Notes: generated by a model from the letters alone, not told the origin. Positions 2-22,324 are shown, counted from the first letter of the stretch. The stretch: 64,000 nucleotides of DNA from Cyanobacteria bacterium P01_F01_bin.150 (GCA_039189765.1 JBCCYL010000026.1:2787-66786); one strand, 5' to 3'. Translations and numbers: made by a program.

Positions 2-289
2 ACAGAATGGTGTTTGGATTATCTGCGCTGGTTGTCAGATATCAGTCGCTGTGGGGATGAAATTATTAATTTATTTAAGCCAGATTGTTTAGTTCAGGCA
101 AAAGGAACAGAGACTATACCCGATGAATTGTCTGCACTAGTGATTGGTGTTGAAGTGGATCGAAGTAAGCGTACCAGCGATAGTATTCCGCTTCTAAAGC
201 AACGCTTGGATGATCCGGATTTAGCATCATGGTGTGGGCGGGGTATGGTTGGGTTAGCCCGAGCTATATATACTTTATGCCAAATCTAA
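2..289 (+). CDS. 3' end of a gene that begins upstream of the window; hypothetical protein
   Basis: The reading frame is open from position 2 and the listed ORF 14..289 starts at TTG, so the true start probably lies upstream of the window. No recognisable motifs. Confidence 0.3.
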   Translation, partial: TEWCLDYLRWLSDISRCGDEIINLFKPDCLVQAKGTETIPDELSALVIGVEVDRSKRTSDSIPLLKQRLDDPDLASWCGRGMVGLARAIYTLCQI

Positions 290-436: not shown

Positions 437-3400
437 ATGACCAATGTAGAGAATGAACTTGGCAACAGCCTATTATTGCCTCAGCTAAAGGACGATCGAG
501 ATATTCGAGCGGATCGGATTGGAGCTTGGACATTACATCCTACGGCTGCTTTTCAGCGAATTGCCGCAGGCTTAGATTATCAGGCACCGGGTGAGTTAAA
601 TAGCGTTAGCTCTGTGCCGACTATGTGGGCGCATCCCCTCACGGTTGAAATGGCGCTCCATAATCCAGGACACCCGATTCGAGAGCAAATGGTGGGGCAG
701 TGGCGAGGGATGTTGGCGGCGATCGCCCTTGCTTCAGTTCTGGGGCATCCGCTGAAAGCCAAGCGTATTCAAGTTGGTAAACTGGGCTATCATCCTTTTG
801 ATCGGGCATTAAATCGCCTAGTGCCGGATGCGTTCAATGCGCTCTATGACCATCGTCAAACAGGAGATAAACATCCTTGGCGTGACTTATTTGTTTTTTT
901 CTGGGGAGATAACCCGGTGGGAATGACTTCCCCCAGCACTATTGTTGTGCCAGGGGAAGCAGCTAATTGGGGAAGCTTACGCTGGTATAATCCGACGTCA
1001 AAGCGGCTTTACTCTCCCCAAAAAAGCGAACTCAATGAGGATGATCGCACTCAATTGTGGCTGTGGTTACAGAACCTGCAAAATGCTCTGACTGCTCCAG
1101 ATTTGGGAGGCAATGGGCAAGCGGTCAACACAATTGTGCGCCTGCTTGATGAATTCAAGGCCGACCTTCTAAACGCTCCTCCTCAGGAAGCCCTGGCCCT
1201 TAGTAGTGATAGAGAATTCTTTGGTATCCCCCTTAACCGTGGGATTCTTAGGACTTTAAGTAAACCAATTAAAGCGGCTGCAAAGGATTCTAGCGTAGCG
1301 ATTGTTCCCAGCGAAGGCAAAACGCCTGAGAAGCCATTAATTTTAATTGATCCGGAAATTGCTAAGCGTTGGGGGAAAGAGCCGGAGGATATTTATGTTT
1401 ATCAGGATAAGACCCTAGCAAAAATTAATCTAGAAGCGATCGACCAATATCGTTTTCAATGGAAAGACGAGGTAAATTGTGCGACTCCGGATGACTTATT
1501 TTTAGCCGATTTGAAGTTTATTGACCATGTGGCGGAGGCGATTCCCGGTGGATTGATGCCAAAAAGCACTCAGCCTTTGGTATTTGCTGGAGAGCATATT
1601 ACAGCCTTAATCCCTCTTAACTCCTTGCTTTTGGAGTACTTCACTCCAGAAGAGCTGGTCGATTTAATGACGTTAAAACCTCTTAATGAGGGTGAGTCTA
1701 GTAAAGTTGAGGTGTCTCTAGACTTGCCTTTATCCGGTACCGACAAATTAGGGAAGTCAGAAAACTATCGCCTAACTCGAGAATATGAGCTTACCCAAGA
1801 AAATGCCCTAACGGCTATTCCAGTCTTAGAATTGTGGCCCAATTTTAAGGCTAAAGATTGGCAAGCCTACTACGCACTGTTTTTTGACCTTGGCGCAGGC
1901 AACCAGACCTTTCGAGTCAGATTTACCGGCCAAACTGAAGTTGTGCCATATAAAGATGACCAAGGGGCAAACTATATTTTGACCCAGCTATATGAGTTTC
2001 CGACGGTGATTGAATGTTTAGATGATGCTAATCAATTGATCGGCCTAATTCTTCCCAAGCAGCCCCCAGAGGTTTTCCCAAAGGCCAACTGGAAAGTAGG
2101 CGTAGACTTTGGTACTTCTTTTACAAATATTTATGTGGGACGTAGTGGCAGAGCAGAGCCCTTGGAGTTAGATGAAGAGTTGCATCTCAAGGTCACAAAG
2201 TCTCCTCTAAATAATCGATTCCCAACCCTACTACACTTTTTTGTACCAGAGAGATTTCTGCCTCCGGAAAGACCCTTACCCCTGTCGACCGTATTAACCA
2301 CCCGAGCGAGTAGTTTGCCGAAGGGTAAAGGGGAGCGAGCAATCCTTGATGGCCGAATTTTCAACCCAAATTTACGAGATTTTAACCCCCAAGAGGATTG
2401 GATTGAAACCGATTTGAAGTGGAAAAATTTTGACCATCATCGTTTATTTCTTAAGCATCTAATCCTGCATATTTCAGCCAATGCAGTAAAGCAAGGCATT
2501 GCCAATATTCATTGGATGCTTTCCTATCCATCGGCGTTTTCCCGAAATGACCGCAGCATGTATGCAGCTACTTGGAATGATCTCACCGAAGCGTTAGGTC
2601 GGGATACCGGCATTCACTCGCAGTGCTCATCAAACCCCAATAGCGAGTACTTCAAAACAGAGAGTCTGGCTATTGCCCAATACTTTGCCGATCAGGAACG
2701 ATTAGATATGGTGTATTCCACCTGTATTGATATGGGGGGAGGGACCTCAGATATCTCTATCTGGCAGGATAATGAATTAGTGCATCAATGTTCTGTCAAA
2801 TTTGCGGGTCGGGATTTGCTATCTAACTTTTTGGAACTCAAACCTACCTTTGTTGCAACTCATTTTGAGCGTGACCCGCGTGAATGGTCTAAATTGCGGG
2901 GTGGCGATTTTCATGCCAAGCTGGATGTCTTGCTGCGGTGGGAAAGTGAAGCTTGGCTTCAGAAGAAGCGGCCGACGCTGACGGATGCAGATGATTTCCA
3001 AGGGTTAGTGCGTTTGATGGCTTTGGGGGTTTGTGGCTTGTATTATTATGTGGGTCTGATCATACAGTGCCTCAAAGAAAACGGAACCTATCGGCGTGAT
3101 GTCATTACACCCGTGTATTTGGGAGGGAATGGGTCACGATTACTCCACTGGCTCGATATCACAGGCCGCTTTAGCACTCATGGGGAAATGAATTTATTGT
3201 TGAGCCGGATTTTGAGTCGGGGTGCGAATTTAGATGATTCACAAGAAAATACCCGGCTTAGTGGCCACCCGAAGGATGAAGTGGCCTGTGGCTTAGTGTT
3301 GGCAGAAACTGACCTTAAAGGGTTGGATCCTAGGTCTCCAGACTCTTTGATTCCTGGTGAAGACTATGAATTGAATGGGATGTCCTATGGCTGGGATCGG

Positions 3401-3715
3401 ATTATGGATATAGAAGAAGATATTACTAGTTTCAGTATCCCTAAATTAGATCATTTATCTGAATTTCTGTATGAATTTCACAAGGGGTTAAAGGATTTTC
3501 GGATTGAAGGAATTAGACCGATTCCTGGATATACGCCAAGCACTGATATTTCGGTAAACCCGAAGCTTTGGCAGGGAACTCAGCGATCCTTGGATAAGCT
3601 TTTACGAGAAAGTAAACTAACGGGTGATATTACCAAGATTCAGATGCAGCCACCTTTTATTTTGGGGCTTAAAGCGTTATTGCATCATCTGGGGAATCAA
3701 TGGTCGGGACGCTAA
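437..3715 (+). CDS. Large (1092 aa) protein with a C-terminal Hsp70/actin-like (ASKHA) ATPase domain; N-terminal ~350 aa of unknown function
   Basis: Three motifs in the right order and spacing for an ASKHA fold: VGVDFGTSFTNIYVG (phosphate-1, cf. Hsp70 GIDLGTTNS), CIDMGGGTSDISIW (phosphate-2, cf. DLGGGTFDVS) and VYLGGNGSRLLHWL (adenosine motif, cf. GG.SR.P). Long uninterrupted ORF, with a degraded paralog downstream at 9425-11905. Confidence 0.6.
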   Translation: MTNVENELGNSLLLPQLKDDRDIRADRIGAWTLHPTAAFQRIAAGLDYQAPGELNSVSSVPTMWAHPLTVEMALHNPGHPIREQMVGQWRGMLAAIALASVLGHPLKAKRIQVGKLGYHPFDRALNRLVPDAFNALYDHRQTGDKHPWRDLFVFFWGDNPVGMTSPSTIVVPGEAANWGSLRWYNPTSKRLYSPQKSELNEDDRTQLWLWLQNLQNALTAPDLGGNGQAVNTIVRLLDEFKADLLNAPPQEALALSSDREFFGIPLNRGILRTLSKPIKAAAKDSSVAIVPSEGKTPEKPLILIDPEIAKRWGKEPEDIYVYQDKTLAKINLEAIDQYRFQWKDEVNCATPDDLFLADLKFIDHVAEAIPGGLMPKSTQPLVFAGEHITALIPLNSLLLEYFTPEELVDLMTLKPLNEGESSKVEVSLDLPLSGTDKLGKSENYRLTREYELTQENALTAIPVLELWPNFKAKDWQAYYALFFDLGAGNQTFRVRFTGQTEVVPYKDDQGANYILTQLYEFPTVIECLDDANQLIGLILPKQPPEVFPKANWKVGVDFGTSFTNIYVGRSGRAEPLELDEELHLKVTKSPLNNRFPTLLHFFVPERFLPPERPLPLSTVLTTRASSLPKGKGERAILDGRIFNPNLRDFNPQEDWIETDLKWKNFDHHRLFLKHLILHISANAVKQGIANIHWMLSYPSAFSRNDRSMYAATWNDLTEALGRDTGIHSQCSSNPNSEYFKTESLAIAQYFADQERLDMVYSTCIDMGGGTSDISIWQDNELVHQCSVKFAGRDLLSNFLELKPTFVATHFERDPREWSKLRGGDFHAKLDVLLRWESEAWLQKKRPTLTDADDFQGLVRLMALGVCGLYYYVGLIIQCLKENGTYRRDVITPVYLGGNGSRLLHWLDITGRFSTHGEMNLLLSRILSRGANLDDSQENTRLSGHPKDEVACGLVLAETDLKGLDPRSPDSLIPGEDYELNGMSYGWDRIMDIEEDITSFSIPKLDHLSEFLYEFHKGLKDFRIEGIRPIPGYTPSTDISVNPKLWQGTQRSLDKLLRESKLTGDITKIQMQPPFILGLKALLHHLGNQWSGR

Positions 3716-3767: not shown

Positions 3768-4892
3768 ATGACTACTGAACAAAACTGGCAAGTCCCTTGC
3801 CAAATCTGCGGCTTTCACAATTGGTTCTCTAAACTTGGTGACAAGGTTATTTATTGTCGTAAGTGTGGTGGCCCTACCTATAATGTCCGCCGTCCTTTTG
3901 ATGAGGGTGATATGTATGACTTTATCAATAAAGTTAAATTATGGACGCGAGATGGAGTAGCGGTGAGAAGGGACTCCAGTGTTAACGAGTCTGCAATCAA
4001 GAATCAAGAATCCTCTTCATCTAATCAGGTAAGTCATTCAGCTGAGCTGGCATTTTTGAAAAAAGAAAATGAAGAACTAAAAGTTGGCTTGGATCAGGCC
4101 ATTCAAATCCTTGAAAATTTGCAAAGGAAAGAATTATTTTTACATGAATTTAAGATCTTAGCAGATAATTTTTATCAAGATTTTGAACACGTGAAAATGC
4201 ATGTCGATGCAGACTTAGAACAGTTAAAAAATATTAGAAAAGGCACTGAAATTGATGGCCCAGGTGGTTCTGAGATTGATGCACAAGAAGATTTGAAATC
4301 AGAACAAAATCTTAACAAGCAACAACCATCGGACTCTGTTGATAGGGAAGTAGATGTTTCCAAGAATCCAGAACTGGATCAAGAAAAGCGAGAAGAAAGG
4401 CCAAAACTGCCTAAATGGTTAGCAAGATATAATGCTTTAAGTTCTGCTACCGATAGGAGAATCTTCAAAATATTTAAAGAAGATTATGCTGTTCAAATGT
4501 TAATTACGCCCCAGGATGCATTGGAAGGCGATTGGATGTCCCGTCGTGATGATGAGGCAAAAACGTTTAGCTCTGTTGCAGAAGATGGTGAAAGTACATA
4601 TTGGCATATCCATGATGATGAGTTAGATGGAACGGATTTTTTAGTCTTGGATAGGCAGATATTTAGTATAAATAGATCAAGTCTATTATCGATAGCGGTT
4701 TGCTATAACTTCAATACGGACGATGAGGAACAGTCCAAGCAATTTAATCCCGCTAACTATATTCTAAAAGACTATAAAGTGATCTATCCTGCCGAAATTA
4801 TTCGAACGGAGGGGACAAACGAATGGCTTTTGAGTAAGCGGGGACGCATGGACTTTGCGGAAAAAGATCAAGCGAACAATCAAGAAAACTAA
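3768..4892 (+). CDS. Zinc-ribbon (CxxC...CxxC) protein with a coiled-coil and an acidic region, unknown function
   Basis: N-terminal CQICGF...CRKCGG four-cysteine zinc-ribbon motif. Central heptad-like coiled-coil (LKKENEELKVGLDQAIQILENLQRKEL) followed by an acidic low-complexity stretch. The gene is visibly more AT-rich than its neighbours. Confidence 0.5.
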   Translation: MTTEQNWQVPCQICGFHNWFSKLGDKVIYCRKCGGPTYNVRRPFDEGDMYDFINKVKLWTRDGVAVRRDSSVNESAIKNQESSSSNQVSHSAELAFLKKENEELKVGLDQAIQILENLQRKELFLHEFKILADNFYQDFEHVKMHVDADLEQLKNIRKGTEIDGPGGSEIDAQEDLKSEQNLNKQQPSDSVDREVDVSKNPELDQEKREERPKLPKWLARYNALSSATDRRIFKIFKEDYAVQMLITPQDALEGDWMSRRDDEAKTFSSVAEDGESTYWHIHDDELDGTDFLVLDRQIFSINRSSLLSIAVCYNFNTDDEEQSKQFNPANYILKDYKVIYPAEIIRTEGTNEWLLSKRGRMDFAEKDQANNQEN

Positions 4893-5090: not shown

Positions 5091-7523
5091 ATGAACTTTA
5101 AACAAATGCCTAAATATTGGCTTTTGTTATTAGTATTAGTCACAGGCATAGGCGTAGGCACCGCTCACCTCCGTCGGGCAACTCCTCCTTCAGATTTTTT
5201 AACGGAACAAAACACCCCAACGGATCAGGCAGGAGCTGTTCAGGACGACATAGAACTGAATTTAAATCAACTACAAGCCGACCTGGGTGACAGTATTTCT
5301 GTGGAAGAGCATGTCAACAAAATTGTTGAAGCTTACACGATTTACAATGACAGTCTTCAAGCAAGTTTGATTGAGCCGCTCAAAACTATTGCCGAGAAAC
5401 CTGGGGAACATAGAAGTAAAGCATTTATCAAAAATGTTCCTCTGAATATTGAGGCCGTTAACGATCAGCTGGAGACGCTGCATGGCTTTATTGTTGCCTT
5501 TAGTACTGATGTAATCGTCATTACAGTTAGTAGGGAAGATACGGACCGATTAGCTACCGTACTGAATGAGCTTGGAGCTATTCAAGAGGCAATTGAAGAG
5601 ATTCAAACTTTGTTGATTAAGCCGCTAATGTCTCCAGATGGCGAGCCAACCAGCGAAGAGGACTCAAGAACAGGCGAAAATGCCCAGCAGACGACCAACG
5701 CAGATAACCAGGCAACCATTGGCGATTACCCGGATATGGCTGAAGATGACCCGGATAAAGCCCAAGAGATTGCCCAGTTGATTGAGGAAATGGGTCCTAA
5801 AGGTATTTTTGTAAACCTTAGCTATAAAGAAGGACATGAGGATCTCCCGCCTGACGATCCTACTATCCCAGAAAAGTCTCGTTCCAAAGTAATTGCGTCT
5901 CTTCAGGAAAATATTGAGGAAGTAAAAAATATCCCTGCAGTTACCTTAAAAACATTAGGTTTCTATGGTCCTGCTACCTTTGCTGGAATTGAGGAGTTTT
6001 TGCAGTATCGAAATGAAACCATCAGCAATACTCAGTTGATTAGGGTTTCACTGGCTCCAGCTCCAGAGGATTTTCTCGTCAATACTCGTTGGAGAGGGAA
6101 TTTTGTTTTAAGTCTACTTGTCCTTGGTGCCTTAGCCGTTGCCTTATGGTTATTCACAAAACAACAAGGTAGACGTGTACAGAAAACTACCCGCCCAAGT
6201 GATGCTCCGGATCTAAATTGGCAAGGTGATGACCAAACTTCGATGTCTATGCTTAGCATGCAACAGGATATTCTCAAAAGATTAAGCCGTCTTGAAACAC
6301 GCATATCTTCTAAACATCTTGCTTCTTCCGTTAAACGGCTTGAGAAAGATATGATTTCTATTCAAGAGAAGCTCGGAGAAGAACTAGGCATATTGCACGA
6401 AGCAGTATCAAGAAGCCAAGGGCATGGTGAATCCACTAGCTTCCCTTCATCAGCTCAGCTTGGGGAAGTTACTATACTTTATAGACAGCAACCAACACGT
6501 TTTTATATTACGGATACGGTCGCACCATCTCAGGAGAGCCAAGAAGCCTTTTGGTCAGGGCGAAAAACAGATTTCTCTTTTATCACATCGGACCAAGGTG
6601 ACTATTACATTGTTACGCAAGATCAACGTACATACTATGTTGTTCTCCGAGAGAATTTCCCTTTCTCTTCCGGAGCTAATGCCATAATTAAAATGTCGTA
6701 TGAATACGACCATAAGCCAAATCCTAAAGATTTGCACCGTAATTACTTGGAGCTAGCCAGCGTTGAGGAGCATGGGGGGGCAAATGTCTGGGTACTTAAA
6801 ACGCGGGGACACCTGTCTTTTATAGATGGCAGCTTTAAGTCTAGTGTTGCTTTGCCACCTATTGCTCTTCCAGCCAAGCAAAAAATGATCGTTTCAGATA
6901 ATTCAAGTGCGGGTGACCATAAGAAGGCACTAACTCAGGAGATGACGCAGTTACGGACAGTGCTGGCTGAAATTAAACAATCTGTGACAAATCTGTCGTC
7001 ACAGGACACCGATAGAAGCAAGAAAGTTCAGGCATTAGAACAAAAAGTGTTGGGGTTGCAGGTCGTAATGGGAGAATTTACACAGCAGTTACATAACCTA
7101 CAGCAGTTTGTGCCTAGTCCTGAGGTGAATTGGGTGCAAAATTATAACCAGTCAGCGTCTCGACTTCGTGATTTTGCGGTAGTGGTGGAACAAACGGATG
7201 CTAGCTTGACTCAATATTTTCAGGGCATCAAGGATGTTTCGGTGCATTTTGAGCGTAACCCTCAAGGCATCTATTGGATAATGCCAGGAAAAATTTCTGA
7301 GCGTGGCGATCAGTTTGATTATTTAGTGCCAAAAAAAGAGGATATTAGGCTGAATCTGAATGCTTTACAATCAGTCAAGGCATGCTTTGACGTTCCAGAG
7401 CAAACGTCTGGCAATACGGATTTTGAACTAGTGTATCCGGCTATGGTACGGGCATCAGGCACCGTTGGTCGTTGGGAATTGGTAAAGCCAGGACAGTTAA
7501 AACTTAAGGATGGGACCCCATGA
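5091..7523 (+). CDS. Signal-peptide/transmembrane protein, paralog A (810 aa), unknown function
   Basis: Strong Shine-Dalgarno AAGGAGG at 5079-5085. N-terminal signal-like hydrophobic segment (WLLLLVLVTGIGVG), one internal TM helix (FVLSLLVLGALAVALWLF) and coiled-coil segments. About 85% identical over the first ~575 aa to the next gene. Confidence 0.6.
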   Translation: MNFKQMPKYWLLLLVLVTGIGVGTAHLRRATPPSDFLTEQNTPTDQAGAVQDDIELNLNQLQADLGDSISVEEHVNKIVEAYTIYNDSLQASLIEPLKTIAEKPGEHRSKAFIKNVPLNIEAVNDQLETLHGFIVAFSTDVIVITVSREDTDRLATVLNELGAIQEAIEEIQTLLIKPLMSPDGEPTSEEDSRTGENAQQTTNADNQATIGDYPDMAEDDPDKAQEIAQLIEEMGPKGIFVNLSYKEGHEDLPPDDPTIPEKSRSKVIASLQENIEEVKNIPAVTLKTLGFYGPATFAGIEEFLQYRNETISNTQLIRVSLAPAPEDFLVNTRWRGNFVLSLLVLGALAVALWLFTKQQGRRVQKTTRPSDAPDLNWQGDDQTSMSMLSMQQDILKRLSRLETRISSKHLASSVKRLEKDMISIQEKLGEELGILHEAVSRSQGHGESTSFPSSAQLGEVTILYRQQPTRFYITDTVAPSQESQEAFWSGRKTDFSFITSDQGDYYIVTQDQRTYYVVLRENFPFSSGANAIIKMSYEYDHKPNPKDLHRNYLELASVEEHGGANVWVLKTRGHLSFIDGSFKSSVALPPIALPAKQKMIVSDNSSAGDHKKALTQEMTQLRTVLAEIKQSVTNLSSQDTDRSKKVQALEQKVLGLQVVMGEFTQQLHNLQQFVPSPEVNWVQNYNQSASRLRDFAVVVEQTDASLTQYFQGIKDVSVHFERNPQGIYWIMPGKISERGDQFDYLVPKKEDIRLNLNALQSVKACFDVPEQTSGNTDFELVYPAMVRASGTVGRWELVKPGQLKLKDGTP

Positions 7524-9256
7524 ACTTTAAACGAATGCCTAAATCCTGGCTTTTGGTATTAGCATTAGTCGCAAGCATAGGCATTGGCAACGCTCACCTC
7601 CGTCGAGCAACTCCTCCTTCAGATCCGTTAACGGAACAAAATACCCCAACGGATCAAACAGGGGCTGTTCAGGACAACGTAGAACTAAATTTAAATCAAC
7701 TACAAGCAGACCTGGGTGGTAGTATTTCTGTGGAAGAGCATGTCAACAACATTGTTGAGGCCCACAAGGCTTTCAATGACAGTCTTCAAGCAAGTTTGAT
7801 CAACCCACTCAACACTATTGCCCAAGAACCTGCGGAACATAGAAGTAAAGAGTTTATCAAAAGTGTTCCTCTGGATATTGAGGCCGTTAGCGATCAGTTG
7901 GAGACGCTGTATGATTTTGTTGTTGATTTTAAGACTGATGTCATCCGCATTACAGCTGATAGGGAAGATACGGACCGATTGACTACCGTACAGAATGAGC
8001 TTGGAGCTATTCAAGAGGCAATTGAAGAGATTCAAACTTTGTTGATTAAGCCGCTAATGCCTCCAGATGGTGAATCGACCAGCGAAGGGGACTCAACAAC
8101 AGGCGAAGATGCCCCGCAGACGACCAACGCAGATAACCAAACAGCCATTGACGGTTACCCGCAGATGGCTGAAGATGACCCACAGATGGCCCAAGTTATT
8201 GCCCAGTCGATTGAGGAAATGGGTCCTAAAGGTATTTTTGTAAACCTTAGCTATAAGGAAGGACATGAGGCTCTCCCGCCTAACGATCCCACTCTTCCAG
8301 AAAAGTCTCGGTCAAAAGTCATTGCATCTCTTCAGGAAAATATTGAGGAAGTAAAAAAGATACCTACAGTTAACTCAGAAACATTAGGTTTCTATGATAC
8401 TAGTACCTTTGCTGGAATTGAGGAGTTTTTGCAGAATCAAAATAAGGCCATCAGCAATACTCAGTTGATTAGGGCTTCACTGGCTCCAGCTCCAGCGGAT
8501 TCTCTCGACAATACTCGTTGGAGGGAGAATTTTATTTTAAGTCTACTTGTCCTTGGTGTTTTAGCCGTTGCCTTATGGTTGTTTGCAAAACAACAAGGTA
8601 GAGGTGTACAGAAAACTATCCGACCAAGTGATGCTCCGGATCTAAATTGGCAAGGTGATGCTCCAACCTTAATGTCTATTTTTAGAACGCAACAGGATAT
8701 TCTCGAAAGATTGAGCCGTCTTGAAAAACGCAAATCTTCTTCTAAACTTGATTCTTCCGTTAAACGGCTTGAGAAAGATATGATTTCTATTCAAGAGAAG
8801 CTCGGAGAAGAACTAGGCATATTGCATAAAGCATTATCAAGAATCCAAGGACCTGGTGAGCCTACTAGTTTTCCCCCAGCAGCTCGGATTGGGGACATTG
8901 TTATACTTTTTAGACAGCAACCAACGCGTTTTTATATTACGGATACGGTCGCACTCTCCCAGGAAAGCCAAGAAGCCTTTTGGTCAGCTCAAAAAACAGC
9001 TTTCGCTTTTATCTCATCGAACCAGGGTGATTATCATATTGTTACGCAAGATCAACGTATATACTATGTTGTTCTCCGAGAGGATTTCCCTTTCTCTTCC
9101 GGCGCTAATGACATCATTAAAGCCTCGTATGAATATGACCAGAAGCCAAATCTTAAAGATTTAAACCGTAATTACTTAAAGTTAGCCAAAGTTGAGGTTC
9201 ATGGGGGGGCAAATGTCTGGATACTTAAAACGCGTGGGGAAATTAGCTTTGAATAA
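7520..9256 (+). CDS. Signal-peptide/transmembrane protein, paralog B (578 aa), truncated relative to paralog A
   Basis: Start overlaps the stop of paralog A (ATGA). Collinear similarity to paralog A residues 1-575 at both protein and nucleotide level. Similarity stops at the stop codon, so it lacks the C-terminal ~235 aa present in A. Confidence 0.55.
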   Translation: MNFKRMPKSWLLVLALVASIGIGNAHLRRATPPSDPLTEQNTPTDQTGAVQDNVELNLNQLQADLGGSISVEEHVNNIVEAHKAFNDSLQASLINPLNTIAQEPAEHRSKEFIKSVPLDIEAVSDQLETLYDFVVDFKTDVIRITADREDTDRLTTVQNELGAIQEAIEEIQTLLIKPLMPPDGESTSEGDSTTGEDAPQTTNADNQTAIDGYPQMAEDDPQMAQVIAQSIEEMGPKGIFVNLSYKEGHEALPPNDPTLPEKSRSKVIASLQENIEEVKKIPTVNSETLGFYDTSTFAGIEEFLQNQNKAISNTQLIRASLAPAPADSLDNTRWRENFILSLLVLGVLAVALWLFAKQQGRGVQKTIRPSDAPDLNWQGDAPTLMSIFRTQQDILERLSRLEKRKSSSKLDSSVKRLEKDMISIQEKLGEELGILHKALSRIQGPGEPTSFPPAARIGDIVILFRQQPTRFYITDTVALSQESQEAFWSAQKTAFAFISSNQGDYHIVTQDQRIYYVVLREDFPFSSGANDIIKASYEYDQKPNLKDLNRNYLKLAKVEVHGGANVWILKTRGEISFE

Positions 9257-9424: not shown

Positions 9425-11905
9425 ATGGTGTCAAGGTCAGTTGCTATCGATCCCTTGCAAGATTATTCTTTCAGCTATGTGATGCTGATACCCAGCTGGG
9501 AAAAGCATCCTGAATCTCCGTTATTGCTTATTGTCCCTGATATCGCGTTAGCCTGGAAGACAGCTCCTCAGGACATCCTTGTTTGCGAAGGCGTTACGCT
9601 AGATCGCATCCCCTTGACACGCTGGCGTCCTATCGATTGCACTGGCCCAAGCTAGTTTTGACGACTCCCGATGATCTGTTTCTGGCCGATTTCTCCTTTA
9701 TTCCCATGTCGCAGAGGCTATTCCAGGTGGTCTGATGCCCGAGAGGCCAAAACCCTTGATATGTGCAGGCGAACCTATTACGCCGCTGATTCCTCTCAAG
9801 CCCCTACTACTCAATTACTTTACGCCAGAAGAACTGATACAACGATTAACCTTTAGGCGTCTTCTCCCTCCAGAAGACGCCCAGGTTGAAGTTTCGCTGA
9901 GATTAACACTTTCCGGGCCAAATCACTTAGATAGTCCTAAAGATTATCACGTCACTAAAATTTATCCTCTGGAACAGAAAAATGTCCTAACAGCCATACC
10001 CGTCCTGGAAATTTGGCCTAACTTAAAGCTAAAGACTGGCGAACATACTATAGTCGCCACTTCGATTTAGGGGCAGGCAATCAAACGTTTCAGGTTCATT
10101 TTGAGGATGCCGCCGAAACAGTGCCCTTTAAAGATGATCAAGGTGCAAACTACTCGTTGATTCGATTGAGCGAATTTCCAACCAGCATTGAATGTTGGCA
10201 GCAGGACAGCAAGCTTATCGGCCTGATTTTACTGAAACAGCCGCCAGACTATTTCCCCGATGCGGACTGGCGAGTGGGGATTGATTTTAATCCCTCGTTT
10301 ACCAATATTGCCGTTGGCTGTGGAGGAAAAGTGGATCTTTTGGCGTTGGCACAAGATTTACACCTCAAGGTCACTAAGTCCCCGCTCAATAAGGGATTTC
10401 CCGCTTTGATCAAATATTTCCTCCCAGAGCGTTTTCTGCCAGCAGAGGAGCCTTTACCCTTGCACAGTATCCTGACTACCCGTGCAAGTCCGTGGGGAAT
10501 AATAAAGTAGGAGAGCGACCTATTTTAGACGGACGGATCCTTCTCCCAAACTTACGGGATTTTACTCCACAGGAAGATTGGATTTATTGCAATCTGGATT
10601 GCAATACAAATACTCTGAATGCCACTCGCTTATTTTTGAGAAATCTCATTTTGCTAATCTCAGCAAATGCTGTTAAGTAAAGGGCGAAAACGCTGATTTG
10701 GAAAATTTCCTATCCCACCCATCTCTCGCGCAACTCGCGCAATCTGCGCGTTAGGATTTGGAATGATCTACTTCAAGAATTGGCTATGATGACCGGACTG
10801 AACTATCGTATTGCACATAATCCTGACTCCAGTCATTTTATGACCGAAAGCGTCGCCTTTGGTCAATATTGGCCTGTTCACGAAGAATTAGAACTGGACT
10901 GTGCTGTTTGTTTGAATATGGGACCTCAAACCACAGATATTGGTATTTGGTGCCAGGAGCAACTGATTCACCAATGTTCAATCAATTTCACGGGTCGGGA
11001 TTTATTTACAAACGTCCTGCGCCTCAAGCCTGCCTCTATTGCCCGGTATTTTGAACGCAATCCTAACGAGTGGCAGAACCTGAGTGGAGATGATTTTTCC
11101 TGGAAATTAGCGGTCCTACTGCGCTGGGAGAGCCGGACTTGGCTTCGGAAAAAGCGGCCATCTCTCAAAGAAAATAAAGACTTCCAAGGACTGATTCGTA
11201 TCATTGCTCTGGGCTTTAGTGGTCTTCACTACTATCTTGGGCTGGCCATGCAGTCATTAGCGACCCACGGGCTATACTCCAAAGACGATCTGCCCTCGAT
11301 TTACCTGGGCGGCGGTGATATGGGGCGAGTGGGGTCCCCGCGTTTACACTGGCTCGACGAAGCAGGACAGTTTTATCCGCACACTGAAATCAACTGGCTA
11401 TTCAGTCACCTTTTGAGCAGTGCTGCTGGGCTACCCGTTACGCAAACGTATACGCACCTCAGCACTTCTCCACAACACGAAATTGCTTACGGGCTAATCT
11501 CCCCCAAGCCTCTCCTTAATCCGATTGCTCCCCATGACAGCCCACTATTTGTTGCAGGCGAAGCTTACCAGATTAACTTTACGCCCTGTGCCTGGAACCA
11601 CCCTATCTTAACCCATAGAGCCTATTCGCCAATTTAGTATTCCTCAGGTCGATAATCTGGCCATTTTCCTGTATGAATTTCATCAGTGCTTGACCAACCT
11701 TAAGCTTGATAGCGTTAAACCATTACCGGGCTACACGCCAAGCCCTGACCTATCAGCGAACCCAGAGCTATGGCAAAGCACCCAGGGCATCTTGGCACAG
11801 ATGTTAAACGATCGCCATCTAACAGATAAGTCTGAAACCATAAAAATGAACCCGCCATTTATTTTGGCCCTGAAAGCATTGCTGACCCATCTAGGGAATC
11901 AATAG
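9425..11905 (+). pseudogene. Degraded paralog of the 437-3715 ASKHA-domain gene, covering only the region equivalent to residues ~280-1092
   Basis: Seven ORF fragments (9425, 9671, 9735, 10121, 10492, 10780, 11690) lie in three different frames and align collinearly with the 1092-aa protein. Examples: PDDLFLADL.../AEAIPGGLMP, FKDDQGANY...GIDFNPSFTNIAVG, CLNMGPQTTDIGIW, IYLGGGDMG, and the C-terminal PGYTPSPDLSANPELWQ...PPFILALKALLTHLGNQ. Multiple frameshifts and stops. Confidence 0.6.
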
Positions 11906-12170
11906 GTCGACAATGAGCAGCCAAATTAAGCTACGCTGTCCATGCTCACGGCATAGAAGCTTTTGGGTTCAGCGAACTCTACCGTTCGATAGAGTTATGC
12001 TCAACATATACGGTCGCAAAGCCTGAGGCTTATGCTTGATCATAAACAGATTGGGTTTGGAACACGAAAAACGCTTTCCAAACCCAAGTTTTGTATTCAC
12101 TATGCACGGAAAGCAGATCATATCTTCAAAGAAGAACGCGATCGCCACATTTATCACATGCTTTTAAGCA

Positions 12171-13337
<1,167 letters not shown>

Positions 13338-13857
13338 TTAGAAAATAATGCATGCAACAGGATGTAAATCAGGGAAGCTTAACAACTGCTACAAGCCCTA
13401 TTAAATAAGCATTCTAACTTTAATAAAGTTTAACTGAAGTGTTAATAGTTATTTATCTAGCATGGCATTTATTTGGTTACATTTTTTATCTTAGGTTAGC
13501 TTTTATTTTTATTTTGAAACTATTAATTGTCTTAGTGCTATCTGAAGCACATCTTTAAAGCGGCGATGGCCGATAAGACTGCATCCTATTTCAACGCTCA
13601 ACATCCTAACCATTAAGTCTTTATTTAGGGGGACCAACTTAAGGAGAGAAATAGCGCGTCGCGCCCCATTTCTCTCCAATTTGTTTCGCCTGACGTTGGA
13701 ACTCTTTTTTAGTCTATTGGGCATCCTTAGGAATGAGGATTTAATTGCTTATCAATGCGTAGGGTGCCGTTAGCGATAGCGTAACGCACCGTTCCAGAAA
13801 GTTTGACACTTTAATAAATCCTCGTTCCTTAGACTAGTCCCGCGTCAGCTTTATTTT

Positions 13858-13899
13858 GAGGGGAAAATCCCTGCGGGATTTTCCCCTCATTTATTTTCC
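13858..13899 (+). terminator. Strong intrinsic-terminator-like hairpin: perfect 14-bp stem (GAGGGGAAAATCCC/GGGATTTTCCCCTC), 3-nt loop, followed by ATTTATTTTCC
   Basis: Perfect palindrome read directly from the sequence, with a U-rich tail only in the + orientation. No annotated + strand gene lies upstream. Confidence 0.4.
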
Positions 13900-14091
13900 T
13901 GACAGAGTACTAATGAGCCAAAGGAGAAAAAATGCAGATTCCAAAATGGGTATGGTGTTGTTTAGGCGGCTTAGTTGGGATGGTCCCAATGATGGGAGCT
14001 ACGTTCTTAAACATGGATCAAGTGACATGTCAGAACCATGATTTTGCCGGAGACGTTGTAAAGACCATCGGTTCAGAGTGTAACCCTTGAG

Positions 14092-15618
14092 CTATCGCTG
14101 CCCTGTAAGGGTTGTCAACAATGGTGGCTCATCAAGTTCGTGCTTGGGCAATGCCCAAGCACGAACTTGATGAGCCATGATTTTCAAGAGTATGCCCGGT
14201 GCCACTAGGTTATGAGGTTTATCCAACATATGATTGACCCGCGTCATTCGCTCATATACCTTTGCGTCCCGAGTAATAAGAGCCAACAATTGGGATTGAT
14301 ACCAATTGTTAAAGCGCTCCAACAAAGTATGGGGTTGATTACGGTTAATGTACTGCTGATCCATTTCCGTTGCCATTGACCAGGGAATTTCTTCCGCCTT
14401 GGCAAACTGTTGTTGAATGGTTTGACACCAATCCGAACGGAGCGCATCGGGTAACTGATGTAAAGCGTGATCTAAAATTTGGGCTTCGATCGCGGCCATT
14501 GTGATGCCTTGACCATACACCGGGTTAAAGGCACAGGCAGCATGACCCATCACCAAGAAATTGTCTGGGTACACGGCCAGCTTTTCGTAGGCTCGCAAAC
14601 GGTTTTCATTACCGCGATACACGTAAATACCGCTCAACGGCTTAGCATCTTTAATCGCGTTGTAGATTTCAGGCGTTGGCAGACTGCGAGCGTACTCCAA
14701 ATATTCTGCCTCATTGGTTGGTGGATAATCGGGAGCCGCCCCTCCCAATCCAACAATCCAGCGATCGCCCTCCACTGGAAATAAGATAGCCGCTCGCGTC
14801 TGATCCGGTAAACTGGGCCAAACAATTGCCGCTTTCCACTCCACCGACGGCTGGCTCGGGAGTTCATAGATGCGATGGGCGTAGCCAATACGGGCATCTA
14901 GAAACGTTTCATCAGGAGCTTCATAGCCCAAAGCCTGGAGCCATTGGGGAGCTTTTGAGGTTTTACCACTTGCATCGATCACCAAATTGGCCATCAATGT
15001 TTGCTCACCATCTGCGGTCTTAACGTGAACTCCGCCGATTCCCTTTTGGTCTGGCATGCCCACAAGCGATGTCACTTTTGCCCCTTCTAGAAACTGAATA
15101 TTAGACTGCTGGCACAATCGTCGTCGAATAATCCAATCCAGCAATCCTCTTGTGGGCGAAATCGTGAGAATAGAGCTTGCGTCTTTCTTCGCCACACCAT
15201 ACTGACTAAAGAAGCAAATGTCTTGAGAATCGTTCAACAGAGGAGCACCGTGGGAGACTAATTCATCGGTCAAACCAGGAAATAACTCCTCCAGAATAAG
15301 CTGGCCTCGCTGAAGCAGCACATGGAGAAAACGAGACTGGGGTATCCCTTTACGAGGCGTTGGCTCCATTGGATAAACATCACGCTCGATAACCGTCACC
15401 TGTTGATAATGCTTGGCTAGAATGTGACCGGCCAGTAGCCCCGTCATACTGCCACCAATCACAATGGCATGGCGGAAATATTCGGGAGAATGGGCAGAGA
15501 CAACCTTACCGTTATTTACTGTATTTTGCTTGAATGGCATCCTGGCATAGAGTTGGGCAAACATCGAAGAGGCGGTCTTGGACTGTGAAGTCTTCGCTTG
15601 CAATGTCTTGAGTGGCAT
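14092..15618 (-). CDS. FAD-dependent oxidoreductase/monooxygenase (flavoprotein hydroxylase family)
   Basis: N-terminal Rossmann dinucleotide motif VIGGSMTGLLAGHILAKHYQQVTVIERD. Later GHAACAFNPVYGQGITMA resembles the GD...P..GQG.N flavin-monooxygenase motif. The annotated start is probably too far upstream; MPFKQ at ~15540 is more likely. Confidence 0.7.
   Translation of the reverse strand: MPLKTLQAKTSQSKTASSMFAQLYARMPFKQNTVNNGKVVSAHSPEYFRHAIVIGGSMTGLLAGHILAKHYQQVTVIERDVYPMEPTPRKGIPQSRFLHVLLQRGQLILEELFPGLTDELVSHGAPLLNDSQDICFFSQYGVAKKDASSILTISPTRGLLDWIIRRRLCQQSNIQFLEGAKVTSLVGMPDQKGIGGVHVKTADGEQTLMANLVIDASGKTSKAPQWLQALGYEAPDETFLDARIGYAHRIYELPSQPSVEWKAAIVWPSLPDQTRAAILFPVEGDRWIVGLGGAAPDYPPTNEAEYLEYARSLPTPEIYNAIKDAKPLSGIYVYRGNENRLRAYEKLAVYPDNFLVMGHAACAFNPVYGQGITMAAIEAQILDHALHQLPDALRSDWCQTIQQQFAKAEEIPWSMATEMDQQYINRNQPHTLLERFNNWYQSQLLALITRDAKVYERMTRVNHMLDKPHNLVAPGILLKIMAHQVRAWALPKHELDEPPLLTTLTGQR
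14125..14177. repeat. Perfect inverted repeat (~24-26 bp arms, 5-nt spacer) inside the 3' coding end of the FAD-oxidoreductase gene
   Basis: TGGCTCATCAAGTTCGTGCTTGGG caatg CCCAAGCACGAACTTGATGAGCCA, read directly. It encodes ...AHQVRAWALPKHELDEP... in the minus-strand ORF. Confidence 0.6.
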
Positions 15619-15844
15619 GGGGTATTCCTCGCAATGCGATTGGGGCTGGATTGCAGTCTGGGAGATGTGTAAAACGTAGCTTATTTAATTGTGGAGCGTT
15701 CATGTAGCGTTGAACCGCAATCCGCCGTTTTTATTCGCATCCATTATGTCAAGAGCAGTCCTAAATGCCACTACCCGATCGGGTGATGTTAGCCATAAAA
15801 AATGATAAATTTTTGCCGTAGACGCAGGGATAAACAGCAACGAT

Positions 15845-16549
15845 ATGAAGAGCGGACGGAGTCAGTGGCAAGTCAGAGGGACATTATTTATGGTGGGTGT
15901 CAGCTTAGGGTTCTGGATCGGCGCACCAGTGATGGCCTCCACCGCAACGGCTGAAAATTATCGCATTCAGGGGCTAACCTATCGCCAGCAAGGGCGATTT
16001 GATGAGGCGATCGCCGCCATGGAAGCAGCCGTTACCCTTGATCCAAACAATGTCTCTGGTCAAGTGCTCTTAGGCTGGACCCAACATCTAGCGGCCCAAG
16101 GGCCAGATGCCGCTACCACTCTCACCACCGCCATCCAAATTGATCCATTTCATGTTGAAGCGTCCAATGCTCTCGGTATTGTTCATTTGGTTCAGGGGAA
16201 CTTATACTCGGCAATTGTGACCCATCTATGGGCATCCTATCTTCAGCCCAACAATGAAATTGCTTACTTTAATTTGAGTTTAGCGACTCAGCGCCTTGGC
16301 TATTACGAATGGGCCATTGAACTTGCGGCCCAGGCTGTTGAGCTGGAACCTTACAACCCTCATCCATTAATTGCGGAGGCGATCGCCCACTGGAGCATAG
16401 GCAATCGTGAAGAGGCGGAGGATAGATATGGAGAGGCGATCGCCCTCAGTCCTCGCTATCGGACCGCTCAGCTCCCCACTTACTTAAAGGCCGCTGCCTT
16501 TAGTCCTGACCAAATTCAAGTCGCACAACAAATTCTCGCGCGTCTGTAG
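15845..16549 (+). CDS. Secreted tetratricopeptide-repeat (TPR) protein
   Basis: N-terminal signal-like hydrophobic stretch, then repeated 34-residue TPR-like units (AIAAMEAAVTLDPNN..., ...AIELAAQAVELEPYNP..., ...YGEAIALSPRY). Confidence 0.6.
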   Translation: MKSGRSQWQVRGTLFMVGVSLGFWIGAPVMASTATAENYRIQGLTYRQQGRFDEAIAAMEAAVTLDPNNVSGQVLLGWTQHLAAQGPDAATTLTTAIQIDPFHVEASNALGIVHLVQGNLYSAIVTHLWASYLQPNNEIAYFNLSLATQRLGYYEWAIELAAQAVELEPYNPHPLIAEAIAHWSIGNREEAEDRYGEAIALSPRYRTAQLPTYLKAAAFSPDQIQVAQQILARL

Positions 16550-16717
16550 TGATATCAATCACAATCATCACCGACGAAGAACACAGGGAGAAATTTGGAA
16601 TATTATCCGGATGGGCTGAATCTATTGATAGACAAACACACAGACACACAAAACAACGCCCCTTTCTGATATCCGTTTCTCATTCATGAGACTTTTTTTC
16701 ATAAACACACCCACGGT

Positions 16718-16747
16718 CCCAGGTCATTGATGACCTGGGATTTTTTT
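16718..16747 (+). terminator. Rho-independent terminator (CCCAGGTCAT tga TGACCTGGG followed by TTTTTTT)
   Basis: Perfect 10-bp (9-10) stem and 7-T run read directly from the sequence, downstream of the TPR gene. Confidence 0.55.
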
Positions 16748-16910
16748 AGTCTTGTTTTTCACCAATCTCCCAACATGCATTGGGTTCTGAGTGACCCATC
16801 CTCTCCCATCCACAACCCTCTCCAGAAAAATATAGGTTCTTCTCCGTAACTCCCAGTTAAGCCAATGTAGCTTGGAACGTCCCCTAATAATTAAATGCTA
16901 AGGGTGAATC

Positions 16911-17597
16911 ATGTCCCAGTCCATCGAAGCATTGCAAGATACGTGGCTAAAAAAAGATTATCGATATGGTGCCGCCGACCTTACGGACAGCCATAAGGTT
17001 GCAGCAGCCAAGGGCAAGCGATATAAAGTCCTGTCCTATGACGAGCGAGACGGTAGAACTGAAATGGGTGGCCATTTCAAGATTGAGCTTGATCATGGTG
17101 GTGGCACCTGGTACATTTTTGCCGAACACTGGCAGTTACCGTGGCAAGTATTTGTCAAAGAACCGCTTCAAACCGTTCCTGAGTGGAATGAAGTGGACTG
17201 GACCGACTGGAATGCAGCGGTCTCCAAATATTTCACCGTTGGTGAAGTAACTAATATGTCTCGCGAACGCATTCCCACTGCCACCGAGATCAAGAAGAAT
17301 ATTATTGCGATCGCCCGTCACATGGACGACATTCGCGAGTGGTGGAATGGTCCTCTGGCGGTTAACTCTTGGTATCGTCCCTGGCATGTTAATGCTCGCA
17401 TTGGCTCCCGTGCTCCTAACCATCCCAATGGCTATGGCATCGATTTTCGTCCCCTTGGCGGCTCGGTATGGGAATTGCAAAAACGATTCCAAAATGAGTG
17501 GTACAACACTGGGAAATGGAATGGTGGCTTTGGACTCGGAGCTAGCAAAGGATTTATCCACCTTGACCTCCGAAACAAGCGCATCTGGAACTATTAG
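16911..17597 (+). CDS. Peptidase M15 family (zinc D-Ala-D-Ala carboxypeptidase / L-Ala-D-Glu peptidase-like)
   Basis: SRAPNHPNGYGIDFRP (H..G.A/G.D zinc-ligand motif) and GFIHLD (second His/Asp zinc ligands), typical of M15/VanY/hedgehog-type peptidases. Confidence 0.55.
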   Translation: MSQSIEALQDTWLKKDYRYGAADLTDSHKVAAAKGKRYKVLSYDERDGRTEMGGHFKIELDHGGGTWYIFAEHWQLPWQVFVKEPLQTVPEWNEVDWTDWNAAVSKYFTVGEVTNMSRERIPTATEIKKNIIAIARHMDDIREWWNGPLAVNSWYRPWHVNARIGSRAPNHPNGYGIDFRPLGGSVWELQKRFQNEWYNTGKWNGGFGLGASKGFIHLDLRNKRIWNY

Positions 17598-18652: not shown

Positions 18653-18964
18653 CCTGACGAGATATGCTGCAATTTTACGGCGTTATTATGTTTTTTGTCT
18701 TATGCCGAAATGTTGTGAAACAGATTCTGGGGTCTCAAGAGCTTTAGGCTTGAGCAACATGGGAATCAACTTAAGGTGGGAAATTCTGTTTTTTGGACAT
18801 GGTGTACTTAGCGAGCTAGCGAGTTGATCCCCAAAATTGCTAAGGGATGAAACAAAGTTGTTTTTTCGTCGTCAGGAAAAAGAAAGGCAAGCATAATTAA
18901 AAGTTAATTAAATTGATGTCTATACAAAGATATTGATTTGGTTCCCTGGTTAGGATTTCACCTT

Positions 18965-19078
18965 AGAGGGTGTCTGAAAATCCAAAGCTGAGAGCTAAAA
19001 TATTGATTCTTTCGTTGAAGCCCAATGGACGAAACAGCACTTTTTTATGATGCGATGCCCCTTTTCAGACACCCTCTT
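18965..19078. repeat. Long-range inverted repeat: 16-bp perfect arms AGAGGGTGTCTGAAAA / TTTTCAGACACCCTCT separated by ~82 bp
   Basis: Read directly. Lies in the divergent intergenic region between the alpha/beta hydrolase and L,D-transpeptidase genes. Confidence 0.5.
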
Positions 19079-19195
19079 AATCGGATATGGGATCATCGGT
19101 GGTCAAGGGACTGTCTGTCCCTATCGAATGCCCAACGTTGATGCTCATTCTCGGCTGTATCGGAGTCATTTATAAATCGTGATGACAGAACTATC

Positions 19196-19762: not shown

Positions 19763-20082
19763 CAATCCAATGCTATAGGTATGCTGCTGGCCCAGAGAGG
19801 TTGTAAAACCTCTCTGGGTTTTGAGCTAATTGCCAAAAACAAAATTATACTCTGCACGGCTGAGTGCTGGACTTTTTATAAGGTGTGTCCTCCGCTGCGC
19901 GGGGGACACACCTCCAAATCTTAGCCGTTGGCAGTATACCGTGTTCTCTGGTAAAACGAGTGCAGGGAATATTGCATGAGAACAACTCCGATGACAACAA
20001 GGTCATTAAGTCCGTCCTAAATTGCTGATGTACGTCTGGCATCTTCCAAGCTTTCAGGAGCAAAGCGTCGTGCCTTCTCCCG

Positions 20083-22212: not shown

Positions 22213-22324
22213 GGCTTGGGTATCCCTATGCGCTAAGAGATTTTCGAAAATGATTCGGGTACGCTACCAGTATCTTGAAAAGTAATAGAAGACGTAATCA
22301 AGAATTAGGGAGGGCGCTGTACCC

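Follow-up and report, generated by a model that had tools for sequence, protein, structure and literature searches.

The window analysed here, 64,000 nucleotides of DNA from Cyanobacteria bacterium P01_F01_bin.150 (GCA_039189765.1 JBCCYL010000026.1:2787-66786), carries near its start a gene (437..3715, + strand) for a 1092-amino-acid protein that founds a new family within the ASKHA (actin/Hsp70-like) superfamily. We hold with high confidence that this ASKHA ATPase is partnered with a tubulin-like protein encoded immediately upstream. The genes for a protein with four transmembrane segments, the tubulin-like GTPase, and the ASKHA protein are inherited as a unit. By analogy with FtsA and FtsZ, the most likely reading, to which we give an even chance, is that the ASKHA protein and the tubulin-like protein work together in a membrane-associated complex of two nucleoside triphosphatases (NTPases), the ASKHA protein being the ATP-driven partner. 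A preliminary description of the gene, made from the sequence alone, had placed an ASKHA ATPase in the C-terminal half of the protein, behind an N-terminal part without identifiable motifs. The main new result beyond that view is the genomic partnership; the start of the window cuts through the tubulin-like gene.

The gene is a single open reading frame (ORF) beginning with ATG, and ORF listing and translation confirmed the extent and length first described. The identical NCBI entry is the hypothetical protein AAGD25_11245 of the same organism. The ASKHA nucleotide-binding core was assigned to residues 546-960 (2072..3316, +) by Foldseek and by FtsA/MreB profile matches below threshold. The phosphate-1, phosphate-2, and adenosine motifs named in the preliminary description were verified at residues 554-564, 764-776, and 894-902. 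Residue conservation was counted in 115 relatives with 25-52% identity to the query. In the phosphate-1 motif VGVDFGTSFTN (2096..2128, +), D557 is kept in 114/115, G559 in 111/115, and T560 in 92/115 of them; in phosphate-2, IDMGGGTSDISIW (2726..2764, +), the counts are 106/115 for D765, 109 for G767, 102 for T770, and 111 for D772; and in the adenosine motif YLGGNGSRL (3116..3142, +), G897 is kept in 115/115 and N898 in 100/115. A fourth ASKHA motif, which the first reading did not mention, is the connect-1 sequence TESLAIAQYF (residues 741-750; 2657..2686, +; E742 in 110/115, A747 in 101/115). It bears a catalytic-type Glu, lies on helix 742-753 of the model described below, and corresponds to the NEPTAAA/EEPMAAA motif of Hsp70, MreB, and FtsA. 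The order phosphate-1, connect-1, phosphate-2, adenosine is canonical, and the metal- and phosphate-binding Asp residues are conserved. The conservation check on catalytic residues that had been proposed at the outset found the catalytic residues kept in 106-115 of the 115 divergent relatives.

An AlphaFold2 model was built from a 38-sequence alignment (mean predicted local distance difference test [pLDDT] 82.7; predicted template-modelling score [pTM] 0.67). The model shows two beta-beta-beta-alpha-beta-alpha-beta-alpha lobes, lobe I at residues 550-753 and lobe II at 760-953, with their elements in canonical order. In it, the four motifs sit on the structural elements expected for them, namely the beta1-beta2 hairpin 550-569, helix 742-753, hairpin 760-777, and strand 893-897, after which comes helix 899-906. 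Two insertions were predicted in the core, an IB-type insertion (602-664) that is partly disordered and a long, helical IIB-type insertion (791-881). A Foldseek search against the PDB returned 174 matches at E<=1e-3. The best 50 of these were all MreB, nucleotide-binding domains of DnaK/Hsp70/BiP, or BeeR, each with probability 1.00, and no sugar kinase or Ppx/GppA protein was found among them.

The model resembles the MreB/ParM/MamK/BeeR group in its motif order and in its fold, the best comparisons being Geobacillus MreB (8ab4, E 7.2e-8, template-modelling score [TM-score] 0.46) and BeeR (8r2n, E 2e-6). However, the identity is 12-16%, and the 1092-residue protein is three times larger, with big IB- and IIB-type insertions. 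It likewise resembles the nucleotide-binding domains of DnaK, BiP, and Hsc70 (E 2e-7 to 1e-5, TM-score 0.44-0.50), including a long helical IIB-like subdomain, but differs from Hsp70 in having no PF00012 match, no C-terminal beta-sandwich substrate-binding domain or lid, no EEVD, and no DnaJ or GrpE neighbours. Residues ~546-960 are accordingly modelled as an actin/Hsp70-class nucleotide-binding fold with the catalytic motifs intact. Because of this fold and its intact motifs, binding and hydrolysis of ATP by the protein are very probable. As judged from the model, the placement of the motifs is not due to chance, given the expected structural elements, the Foldseek matches, and the conservation in relatives.

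Sequence profiles pointed in the same direction below their cut-offs. The Pfam scan of the 1092-residue protein gave FtsA PF14450 (E 9e-4) and MreB (E 0.02), and the NCBIfam scan gave FtsA, EutJ, and MreB (E 0.016-0.25); all were under the cut-offs and covered the phosphate-2 hairpin only. All 27 family members examined matched Pfam FtsA and MreB_Mbl, with best E values of 6e-6 and 1e-5. The scores were 20-22.8 bits against a cut-off of 31.8 for PF14450, 14-16.7 against 27 for MreB_Mbl, and 14.3 against 175.9 for TIGR01174; the family-level threshold was not reached, and the FtsA and MreB matches span only the ~30-residue phosphate-2 hairpin. A profile of the ASKHA region run against the PDB returned 46 matches at E<10, all of them MreB, FtsA, BeeR, MamK-type, or Hsp70 (DnaK and BiP at E 0.18-1.5). 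In both the Pfam and the PDB searches, the phosphate-2 stretch was the part that aligned to FtsA and MreB. The initial expectation that profile searches would yield a significant ASKHA match was borne out only narrowly: the sequence profiles alone stayed below threshold, with a best E of 6e-6 in Pfam across the 27 members and of 0.004 in the PDB profile search. No significant match to PDB sequences was obtained by phmmer with the single protein or with the full-length family profile. The profiles alone are not convincing, and the deciding evidence for the ASKHA assignment is structural, resting on the predicted model.

The protein fits none of the classic ASKHA families, as had been proposed from its size and architecture. 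No Pfam match to PF00012 was seen in it even at E<=1, no Hsp70 substrate-binding domain was found (its C-terminal 130 residues are mostly helical in the model), and no DnaJ or GrpE gene was present in any examined neighbourhood; the FtsA and MreB matches are those below threshold given above.

The window opens with the 3' end (2..289, +; the last 95 codons and the stop) of a Tubulin_2-type GTPase gene. By tblastn, residues 415-509 of the 509-residue protein correspond to window positions 2-286 with 100% identity. The remainder of the gene precedes the start of the window and was read from Logan contig L004 of the same organism, where a 156-residue protein with four hydrophobic segments and the 509-residue protein are encoded before the ASKHA gene on the same strand. 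The 509-residue protein contains GIGGTGAK (T1 loop) and GGTGASG (T4 loop) and scores 26.9 bits against Pfam Tubulin_2, for which the cut-off is 27. At the family level, PF13809 (Tubulin_2) was matched by 28/28 members (best E 8.6e-11) and Tubulin/FtsZ by 13/28. G9-G10-x-G12 and G187-G188-T189-G190-A191-x-G193 are invariant in this tubulin-like family, whose proteins are 484-538 residues long (73 ORFs) and share a conserved C-terminal tail, G-x-V-G-L-A-x-A-x-Y. RefSeq labels the Gloeothece orthologue "tubulin-like domain-containing protein". Pfam scans and inspection for Walker A motifs revealed no P-loop GTPase among the neighbours.

The gene order is strictly kept. A tubulin-like gene lies immediately upstream of the ASKHA gene, on the same strand, in 79/82 loci; the 3 loci without it are contigs cut <=335 nucleotides from the start of the ASKHA gene. 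The gene for the protein with four transmembrane segments (~156 residues) lies upstream in 73/82 loci. The tubulin-like/ASKHA order was also found among the called genes of Calothrix, Lyngbya, Trichodesmium, and the present metagenome-assembled genome, and on plasmids. Even in a relative with 27% identity (L084), the order is kept (459, 176, 496, and 1057 residues) and is followed by an OmpA-domain (PF00691) gene (L084:12488-13195, +). In two natural fusions, P0168 (1605 residues) and P0186, a tubulin-like protein (AVGGTGMK ... GGTGASG) runs directly into the ASKHA protein; in the fusion case examined, a gene for a 157-residue protein precedes. The pairwise-identity matrices of the tubulin-like and ASKHA proteins from 65 loci were correlated with r=0.92, a value reached in 0/999 permutations. 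This correlation, drawn from sequence comparison, speaks for co-inheritance as a unit and not in itself for interaction.

A word-indexed search found 231 relatives of the 1092-residue protein. The best 120 of these are 45-68% identical, nearly all of full length (1070-1110 residues, the shortest 945), all annotated as "hypothetical", and cyanobacterial wherever the source is named. An exhaustive profile search yielded 2236 clusters (50% identity) at E<=1e-3 and 866 at E<=1e-30. When a single genome was scanned for each GTDB species, the family was present in 214 genomes; among the best 80 of these, every taxon named in a record title is cyanobacterial, and their hosts include Nostocales, Trichodesmium, Crocosphaera, Microcystis, Chamaesiphon, Thermosynechococcaceae, Prochloron, and others. 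By far most loci lie on chromosomes, and a search of IMG/VR viral contigs retrieved no relatives. A profile search with the ASKHA region only retrieved fragments of the protein's own family. Because this search reached no protein outside the family, the family appears as an island within the ASKHA superfamily at the sequence level. An apparent "short subfamily" of 653 residues (P0385) was set aside as a frameshift-ridden assembly of the ASKHA/tubulin-like module. Some genomes carry two ASKHA paralogues (L014, also L036 and L040 of Crocosphaera sp. Alani8); the two of Calothrix anomala FACHB-343 (L014) are arranged in tandem on a single contig, at 3863-~7130 and 10001-13219.

The N-terminal half of the protein was divided into two regions. 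N1 (residues 1-275; 437..1261, +) is alpha/beta in the model, with low model confidence over residues 1-61, and varies more within the family than any other part; many relatives align to the family profile only from position ~270-345 on. N2 (residues 276-545; 1262..2071, +) is mostly beta in the model, with a sandwich of ~10 strands at 411-540, and is conserved together with the ASKHA core. Because relatives leave the profile over the first ~300 residues, the far N-terminal region appears to be the variable part and the beta-rich region appears to travel with the ASKHA core. In agreement with the preliminary description, which had recognised no motif in the first ~540 residues, residues 1-~545 gave no match in Pfam, NCBIfam, PADLOC, or PDB sequences, and a separate model of the N-terminal half (pLDDT 80) gave no significant fold match in the PDB or BFVD. 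Foldseek matches of N2 were Ig-like and weak (best E 0.013). A Walker-A-like GTDKLGKS at residues 434-441 was considered as a P-loop and rejected, lying in a non-conserved loop; it was the only such match, the downstream proteins of the window being devoid of Walker A motifs.

Conservation analysis nevertheless marked a motif in this variable part, S-[IV]-P-x-[MIV]-W-A-[RH]-P-L (PxxWARP; residues 59-68; 611..640, +), as a candidate docking motif. P61 is kept in 105/115, W64 in 107/115, and R/H66 in 101/115 relatives, and the motif persists in subfamilies whose first ~300 residues are otherwise off-profile. A second conserved N-terminal motif is [EQ]-W-R-G-L-L-A (residues 88-94). In a metagenomic relative, P0199 (1335 residues), the N-terminal ~390 residues are duplicated, so that the PxxWARP-type region occurs twice before one ASKHA core. 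At the other end, a mostly helical C-terminal extension (residues 961-1092; 3317..3715, +) was predicted by the model. It ends in a conserved, amphipathic-looking helix, PPFILGLKALL..LG..W, in which L1078, K1079, and W1089 are invariant in the 38-sequence alignment; we infer from this that the helix may bind the membrane.

Three genes follow the ASKHA gene on the same strand. The first (3768..4892, +; 374 residues) encodes a protein that begins with a zinc ribbon (CxxC...CxxC), has a coiled-coil/charged region, and bears a C-terminal domain of ~100 residues at 258-361. The second (5091..7523, +; 810 residues) encodes coiled coils, two hydrophobic segments (~9-25 and ~338-356), and the same domain twice, at 476-575 and 698-804. 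The third (7520..9256, +; 578 residues), whose ORF overlaps the second by 4 nucleotides, is a tandem duplicate of residues 1-577 of the second (78.5% identity over 577 residues) and has one copy of the domain at 476-575. Scans of the ASKHA protein and these three neighbours with Pfam, NCBIfam, and PADLOC yielded nothing beyond ASKHA matches below threshold and coiled-coil noise. In BLAST searches over the 82 loci, the downstream genes looked unconserved, and the 374-residue protein was found by tblastn in only 1/82. An iterated hidden Markov model search showed that the C-terminal ~100 residues of the 810-residue protein form a domain that is also present in the 374- and 578-residue proteins; its copies in the window lie at 4539-4850, 6516-6815, 7182-7502, and 8945-9244. 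The domain was found in 205 ORFs spread over 71 loci; each locus has 1-6 such genes in a row, each protein has 1-3 copies, and all but one of these ORFs lie directly downstream of an ASKHA gene on the same strand. Its consensus is ..VSET..S...RR.G.....ILE...RGNYWI..E....YLVPK.NLKINE.NY.TV..LFEC..Y....S.F.L.KPA.V........WQL.E.G.LQ., and the proteins that carry it also have zinc ribbons at their N-terminus, coiled coils, or transmembrane segments. No relative of the domain was detected in Pfam, the PDB, or a collection of 5.8 billion proteins, and by these searches it appears to be previously undescribed.

A further component, a gene of ~465 codons with a lipoprotein-type signal, occurs in 56 related loci (for example L001:6006-7409, -, and L005:6069-7568, -). 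It is usually divergent and just upstream of the module; in Trichodesmium and Okeania, it lies at the downstream end. D75, S79, and D183 of its product are invariant, and G76 and T182 are kept in at least 90%, forming a D-G-x-x-S-M plus T-D pattern that resembles the metal ion-dependent adhesion site (MIDAS) of vWA domains. The vWA identity was not confirmed by profile searches (Pfam VWA_2 matched 1/24 members, with E 0.07, and no PDB sequence was matched by the profile). Signs of membrane association in the module are thus the protein with four transmembrane segments, the transmembrane segments in the 810-residue protein, the lipoprotein-type gene, and the OmpA-domain gene of L084. A promoter/terminator scan of the window gave fewer sites than were found in shuffled sequences.

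Further downstream, a degraded second ASKHA copy, apparently a pseudogene, was found at 9473..11902 (+), where six collinear tblastn pieces cover residues 285-1088 with 39-64% identity in frames 2, 1, 3, 2, 1, and 2. The ORFs 9735-10070, 10121-10510, and 10780-11637 each match inside the ASKHA genes of the 82 other loci, and one piece is annotated at NCBI as AAGD25_11270. The first ~284 codons of this copy are missing, and no tubulin-like gene lies in front of it. Because of its level of divergence, the copy appears to be an old paralogue and not a recent duplicate. The truncation point of the 578-residue ORF abuts the degraded copy, which suggests that a deletion joined two formerly tandem modules. 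The region that follows (12171-26825) is of housekeeping character, with genes for GAPDH, an FAD oxidoreductase, a TPR protein, a peptidase M15, and an L,D-transpeptidase (YkuD), as well as an ARMT1-like phosphatase and alpha/beta hydrolases.

The flanking genes of the module vary between genomes, and the module is also carried on plasmids. In Gloeothece verrucosa PCC 7822, it occupies about one-fifth of the 47.5-kb plasmid Cy782204 (L086, NC_014503.1), which is MOBP mobilizable and carries its own ParA; a second match in this plasmid is listed as well. Copies on large plasmids were found in three Picosynechococcus strains (PCC 7003, 73109, and 8807, the last as L087) and in Synechococcus sp. 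NIES-970.

Several features of the module recall systems that have already been described. Makarova and Koonin (2010) defined FtsZ-like 1 (FtsZl1), now Pfam Tubulin_2, and proposed that these proteins form membrane-remodelling complexes with vWA and OmpA proteins; the remaining genes of FtsZl1 operons were lineage-specific and unrecognisable (PMC2875224). The module described here shares with them a Tubulin_2 (PF13809) GTPase with T1 and T4 loops, a membrane-associated character, and, in related loci, a lipoprotein whose motif resembles DxSxS, as well as an OmpA-domain gene in the divergent L084. However, the published FtsZl1 proteins are 900-1200 residues long (910-1189), with an FtsZ-like domain, a long coiled coil, and a helical C-terminal domain, and those of cyanobacteria (~1050-1130 residues) lie in vWA-FtsZl1-B7-OmpA/MotB operons (PMC2875224); the tubulin-like protein found here has ~500 residues and does not show this long architecture. 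Its constant partners are the protein with four transmembrane segments and the 1092-residue ASKHA protein, whereas an ASKHA partner is not discussed in that study, although its supplement lists a 1626-residue COG0443 (DnaK-like) gene in a Magnetospirillum FtsZl1 operon that the text does not take up (PMC2875224). Trichodesmium erythraeum IMS101 (NC_008312.1) carries the short-tubulin-like/ASKHA module (L013) at ~1.85-1.87 Mb and a classical long FtsZl1-vWA-B7-OmpA operon (Tery_1705-1709) at ~2.59-2.60 Mb, so the two types of system coexist at separate loci of one genome.

Kaur, Burroughs, Iyer, and Aravind (2020) described GTPase-centric conflict systems of firmicutes and actinobacteria that are defined by a DO-GTPase and GAP1 and in which tubulin and HSP70 components belong to non-overlapping themes (PMC7159879). 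The present module resembles these systems thematically in its tubulin homologue, its HSP70-type fold, a candidate vWA protein, zinc ribbons, transmembrane parts, and a constant core with variable linked genes. In contrast, no DO-type GTPase and no FNIII/GAP1 gene was seen here (the libraries used contain no public profile for GAP1), the tubulin-like and ASKHA components always co-occur, and the hosts are cyanobacteria. Tubulin_2 proteins were still regarded as uncharacterised outliers by Santana-Molina et al. (2023) (PMC9871819). No paper on a cyanobacterial tubulin-like/ASKHA module was retrieved when the literature was searched by accession, locus tag, and keyword. Because no such paper was found, what is new is the ASKHA family and the short-tubulin-like/ASKHA configuration of FtsZ-like systems, whereas the FtsZ-like/vWA/Hsp70 theme is known.

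The reading that we give an even chance takes FtsA and FtsZ as its model. As in that pair, an ATPase of ASKHA fold is encoded beside a GTPase of the tubulin/FtsZ superfamily with which it presumably cooperates at the membrane, and, at the level of sequence, the phosphate-2 hairpin matches FtsA best (PF14450 in all 27 members; PDB 7q6f). The ASKHA protein and the tubulin-like GTPase would form a physical complex at the cytoplasmic face of the membrane, with docking through the orphan N-terminal half (PxxWARP motif), the conserved C-terminal tail of the tubulin-like protein, or both. The ATP cycle of the ASKHA core would switch the complex between states and thereby gate assembly of the tubulin-like protein, and it might also control the recruitment of the downstream proteins with the ~100-residue domain, which would serve as adaptors. 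The regulatory logic would be that of the actin-like FtsA, which both tethers FtsZ and regulates it. As its biological output, the module could remodel a membrane or the envelope, or it could mount an assembly-based defence response. A wider picture, which we offer tentatively and consider rather unlikely in its entirety, is that of a cyanobacteria-wide, horizontally mobile, membrane-anchored machine, built on an obligate tubulin-like/ASKHA heteromer, in some cases one polypeptide, with its own ~100-residue-domain adaptors and acting as a remodelling or immune device. Such a machine would constitute a new class of prokaryotic assembly in which the two cytoskeletal NTPase folds are combined.

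Several points weigh against this FtsA-like partnership. The ASKHA support from sequence profiles is below threshold and confined to the phosphate motifs, and the TM-scores to MreB and Hsp70 are moderate (target-normalised, 0.42-0.50) because of the large insertions in the core. The correlation of the two identity matrices would be expected for any two vertically co-inherited genes, and a physical interaction is suggested by gene order, fusions, and co-inheritance only. The analogy itself draws on what is known of FtsA and FtsZ, the specific likeness being the shared fold. The 1092-residue protein is no FtsA orthologue, being ~650 residues larger with an orphan N-terminal half, its partner is Tubulin_2/FtsZ-like and not FtsZ, and the module adds the protein with four transmembrane segments, the lipoprotein, and the array of ~100-residue-domain proteins; no link to cell-division genes was seen. 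Finally, the variable number of downstream genes, the decayed second copy, and the plasmid-borne and multiple copies point to an accessory or conflict function and not to a housekeeping one.

These last features would also fit an anti-phage or conflict system, in which an invader would trigger the NTPase assembly and the variable downstream proteins would act as sensors or effectors, as has been proposed for the GTPase-centric systems with tubulin and HSP70 components of Kaur et al. This explanation addresses what the module is for and can stand alongside the molecular picture above; it seems to us possible but on the unlikely side. The constant core beside a fast-diverging array (1-6 genes with 1-3 domain copies, the 374-residue protein being detected in 1/82 loci), the tandem duplication and decayed paralogue in the window, the several copies in some genomes and loci, the carriage on the mobilizable Gloeothece plasmid and on Picosynechococcus plasmids, and the differences in flanking genes between genomes all speak for it, as do the conflict systems of Kaur et al., which bring together HSP70, tubulin homologues, and proteins with vWA domains or zinc ribbons close to the membrane (PMC7159879). 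However, PADLOC models were matched by none of the ASKHA, 374-residue, and 578-residue proteins, and the sole match among the four proteins scanned was a coiled coil in the 810-residue protein (E 0.014). No nuclease, TIR, protease, or pore-former domain appeared in any Pfam scan, the DO-GTPase and GAP1 were not seen, and the neighbours have neither a conserved Walker A motif nor a GTPase match in Pfam. Moreover, the annotated flanks of the module in the window hold housekeeping genes (GAPDH, L,D-transpeptidase) and not a defence island, and viral contigs yielded no relatives.

A cytomotive role, in which a filament-forming actin homologue of the ParM/MamK/MreB kind and a TubZ-like tubulin would segregate or position a plasmid, a chromosome region, or an organelle, with the downstream zinc-ribbon and coiled-coil proteins as cargo adaptors, appears improbable. 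TubZ (tubulin-like) and ParM (actin-like) are established plasmid-segregation motors, the closest structural and profile matches include the filament formers MreB, FtsA, BeeR, and MamK, and some copies are plasmid-borne. On the other hand, with ~545 extra N-terminal and ~130 extra C-terminal residues, the 1092-residue protein is unlike known filament-forming ASKHA protomers, most loci are chromosomal, the module has integral-membrane and lipoprotein-type components that partition systems lack, the Gloeothece plasmid has a ParA of its own, and FtsZ-like 1 proteins lack the T7 and C-terminal elements of FtsZ-type filaments (PMC2875224). Very improbable indeed is a stand-alone ASKHA enzyme or chaperone (a sugar or acetate kinase, a Ppx/GppA phosphatase, or a classical Hsp70) whose neighbourhood would be incidental. 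The automatic UniRef names of two homologues ("Molecular chaperone" and "Ppx/GppA phosphatase domain...") and weak Pfam matches to EutA (14/27 members) and Hydantoinase_A would agree with such a protein, but the best 50 of the 174 structural matches include neither a kinase nor Ppx, and the hallmarks of Hsp70 are missing from both the protein and its surroundings. The neighbourhood is not incidental, because it is conserved in 79/82 loci and reinforced by gene fusions.

Cytoskeletons rest on two pillars, the actin-like and the tubulin-like NTPases. To our knowledge, FtsA with FtsZ is the only well-understood case of direct cooperation between an actin-like and a tubulin-like protein in bacteria. 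If the FtsA-like partnership proposed here is true, the module would represent a second, independent, and tightly coupled pairing of this kind, backed by strict synteny and by fusions, and the long-uncharacterised FtsZ-like (Tubulin_2) proteins would gain a concrete, testable partner. Knock-outs, localisation, and reconstitution look feasible because plasmid copies exist in culturable Picosynechococcus and Gloeothece. The family is spread widely among cyanobacteria of ecological importance, such as Trichodesmium, Crocosphaera, Microcystis, and the Nostocales, and the module brings with it two orphan parts without known relatives, the ~545-residue region and the ~100-residue domain. Any role found for the protein, be it membrane remodelling or conflict, would define the function of more than 2000 sequence clusters that are now all "hypothetical".

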